Assembly (NCBI GenBank): GCA_004431415.1
Contig: QPMI01000104.1
Span: forward strand, 1 to 64,000
Direction: 5' to 3'
Origin: Cyanophora paradoxa CCMP329
Lineage: Eukaryota; Plantae; Glaucophyta
Length of the DNA: 64,000 nucleotides
Part shown: one piece after another, positions 24,671-25,513 of the stretch
How the letters are laid out: every line of letters begins with the position of its first letter
How positions within the stretch are numbered: position 1 is the first letter of the stretch
Translations under genes and position numbers: made by a program
Notes under the pieces: model-generated
What the model saw: the letters and a program-made list of their open reading frames with translations, nothing else
What the model was told of the DNA's origin: nothing
Databases searched by the model: none

Positions 24671-25513
24671 ATGGCGCGCACGAAACACGCGCAAGGGTCT
24701 AAGAAGGGGACCGGACACAAGGCCCCGCGCAAGCGCTTCGCCTCTCTGAAGTCGTCGTCCAAGAGCGCGAGAAAGAACGCTCCCGCGGCCGGTGGGGTGA
24801 AGAAACCTCATCGCTATCGCCCGGTACACGTTTCTTAATAGTAAGCTTAAACTTGAAAGCTTAAGCTTACTCATTGAGTTGGTGAATCGGCGACTATGAT
24901 TTCGAAATTCAGGGCACGGTGGCTCTCAGGGAAATTCGCAAGTGGCAAAAGGTACGTTATATATAATCATTCAATTTCCTTACTATGGTATAGATATTGA
25001 TATACTAACGTGTACATATAACGCAGTCGACGCAGCCTATCATCGCGCTCGGTCCGTTTCTGCGACTCGTCAAGGAGATCACGGACGATCAACTCAAGGA
25101 ACGGCGCAACACGGGCGAGTCCAACGTCCCGTTTGGGATCCGCTGGTCAAAGGACTCGATTCTCGCCCTGCGTGAGGCCGCCGAGGCGTAAGTCTCATGA
25201 TCATACTAAATTCCCACATCTAATTAACGTAATCATATGCATCCCACCCCGGCCCCGCGCGCGCAGGCACGCGATCGAGACCTTTGAGGACGGCAATTTG
25301 ATGGCCATTCATGCAAAGCGGTGCGCCCAAATAATCATCATTGATACCCTAATTAATATTATAAGTTGAATGTCCCGCGATCGCGTGCCCGATGCCCGAC
25401 CTGACGCGCTAGACGCGCGCCTACGCCGCAGCGTGACGATCCAGCCCAAAGATATACAGCTCCGGAGGCGCATCCGTCGCGAGGACAAGGTCGAGGCGGT
25501 GGCGTCGGGGTGA
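24671..25513 (+). CDS. H3: Divergent histone H3 variant (H3-like tail, CenH3-like fold), 5 exons
   Basis: Exons 24671-24823, 24913-24951, 25027-25187, 25267-25320 and 25432-25513 translate to [162 protein letters not shown]. All introns are GT-AG. Confidence 0.96.

Follow-up and report, generated by a model that had tools for sequence, protein, structure and literature searches.

Introduction

Centromere-type variants of histone H3 (CenH3, CENP-A or Cse4) are set apart from other H3 proteins by a short diagnostic list, an extended loop 1 and the absence of Gln, Phe and Thr, as given in the portion of Drinnenberg et al. 2014 available to us (PMC4359364, citing Malik and Henikoff 2003). A CENP-A1 of Naegleria is named in the accessible text of a 2026 bioRxiv preprint. 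H3-like genes are also present on DNA of other kinds. Transposon-borne ones are known in fungi, where the H3L genes of Pyrenophora tritici-repentis lie on hAT transduplication elements (Manning et al. 2013, PMC3538342, as far as the accessible text describes them), and giant-virus H3 genes are common in the IMG/VR collection of viral contigs. Here we describe an H3 variant gene of the glaucophyte alga Cyanophora paradoxa CCMP329, located at 24671-25513 on the forward strand of the first 64,000 nucleotides (nt) of contig QPMI01000104.1 (assembly GCA_004431415.1). This whole stretch, called the window below, is nuclear DNA of C. paradoxa. The protein carries the CenH3 marks in its histone fold and an N-terminal tail of the H3 type, and the gene lies at the end of a long repeated block of DNA.

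Results

An intact five-exon gene

The H3 variant locus is a real, intact gene of five exons, whose joined frame of 489 nt consists of 162 codons and a TGA stop. Its parts, and a second copy of the gene in the window, are as follows.

24671..24823, forward strand: exon 1; start codon, entire N-terminal tail, 51 codons, ending at HRYRP, followed by GT
24824..24912, forward strand: intron 1; 89 nt, GT..AG, GC content 0.36, with a small inverted repeat inside
24913..24951, forward strand: exon 2; 13 codons, alpha-N segment
24952..25026, forward strand: intron 2; 75 nt, GT..AG, GC content 0.28, with a TACTAAC-type branch motif
25027..25187, forward strand: exon 3; alpha-1 (with Q68L), loop 1 longer by 12 residues, F84W, start of alpha-2
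25188..25266, forward strand: intron 3; 79 nt, GT..AG, phase inside a codon
25267..25320, forward strand: exon 4; remainder of alpha-2, T107G
25321..25431, forward strand: intron 4; 111 nt, GT..AG, phase inside a codon
25432..25513, forward strand: exon 5; loop 2, alpha-3, 9-residue C-terminal extension, TGA
58289..59131, forward strand: second gene copy, all five exons identical to the first

A reading of the locus made earlier from the DNA letters alone (the sequence-only reading) had recognised the histone after splicing out four introns. The gene structure agrees with it: the four GT..AG introns leave an intact 162-codon frame, the H3 frame is restored at each exon junction without an insertion or deletion, and no gap of the alignment falls at a junction. 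Introns 1 and 2 are AT-rich when set against the GC content of 0.6-0.77 found across the window. The coding exons are identical in short-read contigs of two DNA runs (X1 and X4), which cover 24671-24824 and 24856-25513. In the stretch between, at 24825-24855 within intron 1, the listed contigs of both runs break at the small inverted repeat. The contig spanning 24856-25809 is about twice as deep as the adjoining ones in X1, by a smaller factor in X4, and its GC content is ~0.58 as against 0.72-0.79 alongside. Contig depth was considered as a measure of copy number and set aside, the excess over 24856-25809 being put down to GC bias; an extra partial copy elsewhere is the alternative.

The GC content of the gene by codon position is 0.60/0.48/0.77. 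That of a replication-type open reading frame (ORF) of the same block, described below, is 0.65/0.48/0.79, and an ORF of the upstream region reaches 0.96 at third positions. Rfam and tRNA scans gave no match, so that no histone 3' stem-loop was detected.

Public gene models misread the locus. A protein search with exon 3 returned one database protein, P0001, which is the EukProt C. paradoxa model tig00000411_g511. This model is chimeric: its first 70 residues come from 24074-24283, within the upstream gene, and are spliced to an internal AG in exon 3. At the second copy (57696-59131), model P0267 (g520) joins the upstream gene to exons 4-5 of the histone. Given that g511 and g520 are both chimeric, the correct gene is absent from the public protein set.

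An H3 tail joined to a fold with the CenH3 marks

Residues 1-153 of the joined 162-residue protein align with residues 1-134 of H3 proteins of 136 residues, at 55-58% identity and E ~1e-52; with such a value over the full length, the similarity to H3 is not due to chance. Individual residues were called against two canonical-type H3 sequences, P0077 and P0016.

With canonical H3 and H3.3 the variant shares the ARTK start, the KAPRK, ARK and GGVKKPHRYRP motifs, a 20-residue segment and a 16-residue fold motif, the last two being identical to the canonical-type sequences. The sequence-only reading had listed these four tail motifs as retained, correctly, and its account of the departures from them also agrees with the alignment: the ARKS context of K9/S10 is replaced and S28 has become N (ARKS at K27 reads ARKN). 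Relative to canonical-type H3 the tail has insertions of 2 and 5 residues. All in all, the tail agrees with canonical H3 at 28 of 40 positions.

In the fold, 55 of 88 positions (~62%) are identical to P0077. Here the variant differs from canonical H3 by a 12-residue insertion in loop 1 and by R63A, K64L, Q68L, F84W, Q93R and T107G; it further differs by the changed K9/S10 and S28 contexts of the tail, by a C-terminus longer by 9 residues and by its four introns. The near-invariant fold expected of a canonical H3 or H3.3 is therefore not found (55/88, with the loop 1 insertion). The fold marks by which a CenH3 is known, an extended loop 1 and the lack of Gln68, Phe84 and Thr107, are all four present, as +12 residues, L, W and G respectively. 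Each of these changes had been read from the DNA beforehand and taken for a CenH3/CENP-A hallmark; the alignment reproduces all of them, and they match the diagnostic list as it stands in the accessible part of PMC4359364. What the variant shares with CenH3, CENP-A and Cse4 is thus an H3-type fold, the longer loop 1, the replacement of Q68, F84 and T107, and in particular W84. The CenH3-like proteins of our set have fold identities to canonical H3 of mostly ~53-66, the variant having 55/88.

The core histone profile PF00125 is carried by P0001, which contains the protein's last 82 residues, and by the paralogs described below at E 2e-17 to 3.5e-33, whereas Pfam searches with single exons of the gene gave no match. 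In a PDB sequence search with the partial model P0001, all 60 best matches listed are canonical H3 chains. An AlphaFold2 model was built for the paralog P0140 from a 50-row alignment, with a mean predicted local distance difference test score (pLDDT) of 78 and block means of ~88-93 over most of the fold. Alpha-N, alpha-1, alpha-2 and alpha-3 are all retained in it, and the loop 1 insertion is rendered as a longer alpha-1 and a short helix. When this model was compared with the PDB by Foldseek, the 50 rows shown were nucleosomal H3-type chains, a result that does not discriminate CenH3 from H3. The fold of the family is thus predicted to be intact.

A family of diverged paralogs in C. paradoxa

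Relatives were sought by HMMER with P0001 over 1.84 billion representative proteins; the matches were compared with the full protein and their clusters looked up. The H3 variant has its nearest relatives in Cyanophora itself: five further models, each on a contig of its own, 56-63% identical to it.

P0140, 146 residues, tig00020801_g13931: credible full-length model with an H3-like tail
P0157, 150 residues, tig00020553_g10531: credible full-length model with an H3-like tail, sharing a 12-residue stretch with the H3 variant
P0141, 151 residues, tig00000104_g4815: start apparently mis-modelled
P0138, 95 residues, tig00000849_g4783: apparently truncated, with two accession ids
P0266, 102 residues, tig00021583_g22645: apparently truncated, with two accession ids

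W84, a loop 1 longer by 10-12 residues, the loss of Q68 and T107, and an invariant R72K and Q93R are common to all six Cyanophora members. Judging from these resemblances, the H3 variant is not a lone gene and belongs to a species-specific family of at least six diverged proteins. The sequence-only reading had allowed that the occurrence of such a variant outside the element would tell against its proposal of an element-borne histone, and in part this is what we find, five paralogs with the same marks being located on five other contigs.

How common is the pairing of these fold marks with an H3 tail? All four CenH3 marks occur together in 28 of the 273 proteins examined, and in 24 of these 28 alpha-N is preceded by 30 residues or more. 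Within the 24, the three tails most similar to canonical H3 are all from Cyanophora: 32/40 in P0140, 28/40 in the H3 variant and 24/40 in P0157. The tail of the variant aligns over its whole length, unlike those of the named CenH3s in our set; tail identity does not exceed 18/40 in any of the 20 four-mark proteins from outside Cyanophora, and it is 4/40 in P0141, the member with the doubtful start.

A quick maximum-likelihood tree of the fold was computed from 102 rows and 98 columns, after leaving out 6 non-histone or chimeric proteins, proteins longer than 260 residues, rows that do not span the fold, and 70 of 95 canonical-type rows. All six Cyanophora proteins fall into a single clade, supported at 94 in the Shimodaira-Hasegawa-like approximate likelihood ratio test (SH-aLRT), and within it the H3 variant has the shortest end branch (0.12). 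The variant differs from a typical CenH3 in belonging to a family of at least six diverged paralogs, and in the tree it lies apart from the named fungal CenH3s. Among the search matches, of which 19 proteins were traced to their source, 6 of them to Cyanophora, no further CenH3 candidate of C. paradoxa came up. We found no paper on a CenH3 or an H3 variant family of Cyanophora or of glaucophytes, although the supplements of kinetochore surveys may list one.

The gene lies at the edge of a repeated block

The DNA around the gene is present twice in the window, as two copies of one block with a period of 33,759 bp. The features of the block and the genes that flank the H3 variant are listed here.

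1..25809, no strand assigned: block copy A, equal to 33760-59427
33760..59427, no strand assigned: block copy A', followed by unrelated DNA of lower GC content (U2) from 59428
747..2390, no strand assigned: tandem arrays of 67-nt and 109-nt repeats, also at 16084-17017, 19231-21823 (inverted) and 31826-32988, and again in copy A'
8595..9350, reverse strand: RING-finger ORF (PF13639, E 8.3e-7, 29.6 bits, cut-off 27.3), just upstream of the replication-type ORF
9613..15831, forward strand: replication-type ORF, intronless, 2072 codons, likely of the primase/helicase type
18435..19193, reverse strand: GIY-YIG nuclease-domain ORF (PF01541, E 4.9e-8, 33.6 bits, cut-off 22.6), between oppositely oriented arrays
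24074..24407, forward strand: last coding part of the upstream orphan gene, with a transcript contig to 24465
26058..28308, reverse strand: downstream neighbour, expressed, at least 9 introns of 56-69 nt, with transcript contigs reaching 25722-25766

Copies A and A' are 99.38% identical, with 0 mismatches and 157 gap openings, which indicates one and the same sequence plus long-read indel errors. Assembly errors of 1 nt are numerous in the window, for the most part in copy A', and interrupt its ORFs; short-read contigs insert a single G or C at many places, for instance after 24359, 26536, 28794 and 28927. The sole true edge of the block in view is 25809/25810 (equal to 59427/59428), located 296 nt past the stop codon of the H3 variant, and the X1 and X4 contigs both end exactly at 25809. 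We rejected 33759/33760 as a real boundary, as it is merely the point at which the first base of the window meets its repeat. Copy A is followed by 8 kb of GC-rich DNA (U1). The DNA after copy A' (U2, 59428-64000) has a GC content of 0.53-0.56 and starts with a 27-nt hairpin (GTGGACTGA...TCAGTCCAC); short direct repeats of TGACACTG-like words occur in it, and no protein family was found there.

The 67-nt and 109-nt arrays are GC-rich and have a CCGTCACGGAGCC core in common; they run in either orientation and split the unit into gene islands. For the replication-type ORF, the nearest protein-atlas clusters are Herpes_ori_bp/PriCT_2 (score 0.96), with members from giant viruses, Preplasmiviricota and fungi. 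Its resemblance to the CyRepA1 plasmid replication family is weak (E 1.8e-4, 20.5 bits against a cut-off of 200), and Pfam, PHROGs and PDB sequence searches gave no meaningful match. Motifs like those of archaeo-eukaryotic primases and a P-loop can be picked out in it, by eye only. The ORF has 2 database relatives, on tig00000411 and tig00000269, and the second of these contigs carries the upstream gene again as well, so that the assembly contains the block in several copies. No relative of the ORF was found on the contigs of the five paralogs, a weak negative owing to a length filter and fragmented gene models. At 5700-6660 on the forward strand, visual inspection picks out pieces of an AAA+-type ATPase that lie in different frames, namely AQGTGKS, which resembles a Walker A motif, and a lid-like FLPAPNAEFRREII, suggesting an intron-split gene; Pfam gave no match on the pieces.

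In Pfam searches 13 long ORFs returned nothing and 164 further ORF pieces returned the RING and GIY-YIG domains only, and PHROGs gave no match for 9 proteins. Pfam detected no capsid, packaging ATPase, integrase or transposase in 15 + 78 + 86 (179) ORF pieces, bearing in mind that Pfam is weak for capsids and that introns or 1-nt errors could hide a transposase.

Neither neighbour of the H3 variant gene belongs to a known protein family, and the protein atlas had no usable match for the upstream gene. The true C-terminus of the upstream gene, which requires one C missing from the assembly after 24359, is shown by P0123 (tig00000269_g23674). Expression was viewed through X21-X24, four contig sets presumed to be RNA. 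The downstream gene is represented by one transcript contig of 2425 nt in each of X21 and X24; in the window the frame of its joined exons is disrupted by 1-nt assembly errors. For the H3 variant gene no transcript contig is listed in X21-X24, coverage stopping at 24465 and resuming at 25722-25766, and from this nothing is concluded.

Discussion

An H3 variant of the centromere type?

We suggest, tentatively, that the H3 variant replaces H3 in a subset of nucleosomes, most likely of the centromere type. This role is ranked first because all the fold marks of a CenH3 are present and because no other candidate from C. paradoxa surfaced. The conserved alpha-2, loop 2 and alpha-3 would allow pairing with H4 and the formation of the H3-H3' four-helix bundle, and the remodelled loop 1 and alpha-2 may direct deposition through a dedicated pathway. 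Loop 1 and alpha-2 form the region read by CenH3 chaperones in other organisms. The kept contexts of K4, K27 and K36 would leave the tail open to the modifying enzymes of the host, with the K9/S10 and S28 contexts changed. Centromeres may be marked by this paralog, by another member of the family, or by none.

Several observations weigh against a centromeric role. A CenH3 is expected to have a divergent tail, and the tail of the variant aligns with H3 at 28 of 40 positions; the named CenH3s Podospora cse-4, Smittium cnp1 and Malassezia Cse4 align with the variant only from about residue 30-47. Alpha-1 has A and L in place of R63 and K64. In the tree, whose deeper relations are poorly resolved, the Cyanophora clade does not group with the main CenH3-like cluster, to which 16 of 20 such rows belong, any more than with the canonical one, and at least six diverged paralogs are unusual for a CenH3. 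A classical CenH3 may be encoded elsewhere in the C. paradoxa genome.

Some of these observations lend themselves to another account, in which the Cyanophora proteins are specialised, non-centromeric H3 variants, lineage-specific replacement histones serving certain states of chromatin or stages of the life cycle, that kept a modifiable tail because it is used, their CenH3-like marks being convergent. A tail more conserved than the fold (28/40 as against 55/88) reverses the pattern of a CenH3, and the many diverged paralogs of C. paradoxa, as well as their place outside the CenH3-like cluster, would be readily understood. Convergence would however have to account for all four CenH3 marks in all six members, and the search matches would then contain no CenH3 of C. 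paradoxa at all. We regard this account as possible, if on the whole somewhat unlikely, and keep a centromere-type role as the leading suggestion.

Is the gene borne by a mobile replicon?

The sequence-only reading had called the histone element-borne, and had supposed that it could give an episome centromere-like chromatin for segregation or help it to evade H3K9-based silencing. That the gene lies on an element is plausible, in view of the repeated block, the replication-type and GIY-YIG ORFs, the arrays and the recurrence on tig00000269; against it, both neighbours resemble nuclear genes in being spliced or expressed, and searches of the ORF pieces revealed no capsid, integrase or transposase. 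The closest described parallel on repeated DNA is H3L. According to the accessible text of PMC3538342, H3L is likewise H3-like with tail insertions and a fold that fully matches neither H3 nor CenH3, and both H3L and the H3 variant occur as several near-identical copies in repeated DNA. Their surroundings seem to differ: no transposase (179 ORF pieces, in which introns or 1-nt errors could hide one) or terminal inverted repeats were found around the H3 variant, and the repeated unit is 33.8 kb here, compared with 2.3-5.6 kb for the fungal H3L elements described there. They differ also in their families, Cyanophora members being ~60% identical to one another while the H3L copies of that report are near-identical.

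The H3 genes of giant viruses, found on IMG/VR contigs of which many come from giant-virus bins, offer the example of an H3 on a virus-derived replicon, a likeness that holds only if the block is one. The viral matches are mostly single open frames, whereas the H3 variant gene has four spliceosomal introns. None of 30 H3 loci on IMG/VR viral contigs combines W84 with a loop 1 at least 10 residues longer, most being of the canonical type. As for what a virus-encoded histone should show, hallmark genes in its unit and relatives in viral contigs, the unit holds only the replication-type and GIY-YIG ORFs (Pfam being weak for capsids), and the replication-type ORF has no relative in IMG/VR. Among the same 30 loci, L019 (3001-3456) has a 19-residue insertion in loop 1 of an otherwise canonical H3, and L025 (3001-3279) and L026 (3001-3384) have the CenH3-like substitutions A/W/A and A/V/A.

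The histone could, then, be cargo of a repeated replicon, the 33.8-kb unit being an integrated or episomal element of the virus or plasmid type in which the protein packages the element, segregates it or shields it from H3K9-based silencing. A unit repeated with 0 mismatches, parts of which recur on tig00000269, with a replication-type ORF, a GIY-YIG ORF, arrays in both orientations and neighbour genes of no known family, is consistent with such a replicon, as is the likeness in codon-position GC content between the H3 variant gene and the replication-type ORF. Polinton-like viruses in C. paradoxa are mentioned in the accessible part of PMC12220804, and transposon-borne H3-like genes are described in that of PMC3538342. 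Yet 179 ORF pieces yielded no capsid, packaging ATPase, integrase or transposase, splicing and transcripts are seen in the flanking genes, the five paralogs lie on contigs with no detected relative of the replication-type ORF (an argument made weak by the length filter), and neither the 30 IMG/VR H3 loci nor IMG/VR relatives of the replication-type ORF provide a counterpart. We consider it unlikely that the gene is such cargo.

More doubtful still, though the most far-reaching, is the combination of the two ideas: a self-replicating 33.8-kb glaucophyte unit would carry a CenH3-type histone with a host-like, modifiable tail, with which it would build centromere-like chromatin on its arrays in order to segregate; in a broader form, centromeric function could be shared among the members of a family that has kept the H3 tail throughout.

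Least likely of all is a silent, recently duplicated copy in decay whose frame is intact only through the youth of the duplication: the two copies are identical, hence carry no signal of selection, and public annotation never modelled the gene correctly, yet at ~60% identity to its paralogs the protein retains all structural H3 motifs, its gene has four clean introns, its branch is shorter than that of any other member, and no frame-breaking change is present in two independent DNA sets.

Implications

What is new here, as far as the proteins compared can tell, is that a glaucophyte has an H3 family in which CenH3 marks go together with a retained H3 tail, and that one of its members lies within a repeated unit resembling a replicon. 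Since the models of this locus are chimeric and several paralog models are apparently truncated or mis-started, surveys of kinetochores or histones that are based on this predicted proteome would miss or misread the family. A CenH3 is usually recognised by a remodelled fold together with a tail that cannot be aligned, and the Cyanophora family, in an early-branching alga, has the marks of the fold and yet an H3 tail. Should the gene serve the adjacent replicon, it would represent a mobile element that brings its own centromere-type histone. Should one member of the family be centromeric, divergence of the tail would not be required for becoming a CenH3, and the family would present, in a living alga, a state intermediate between H3 and CenH3.

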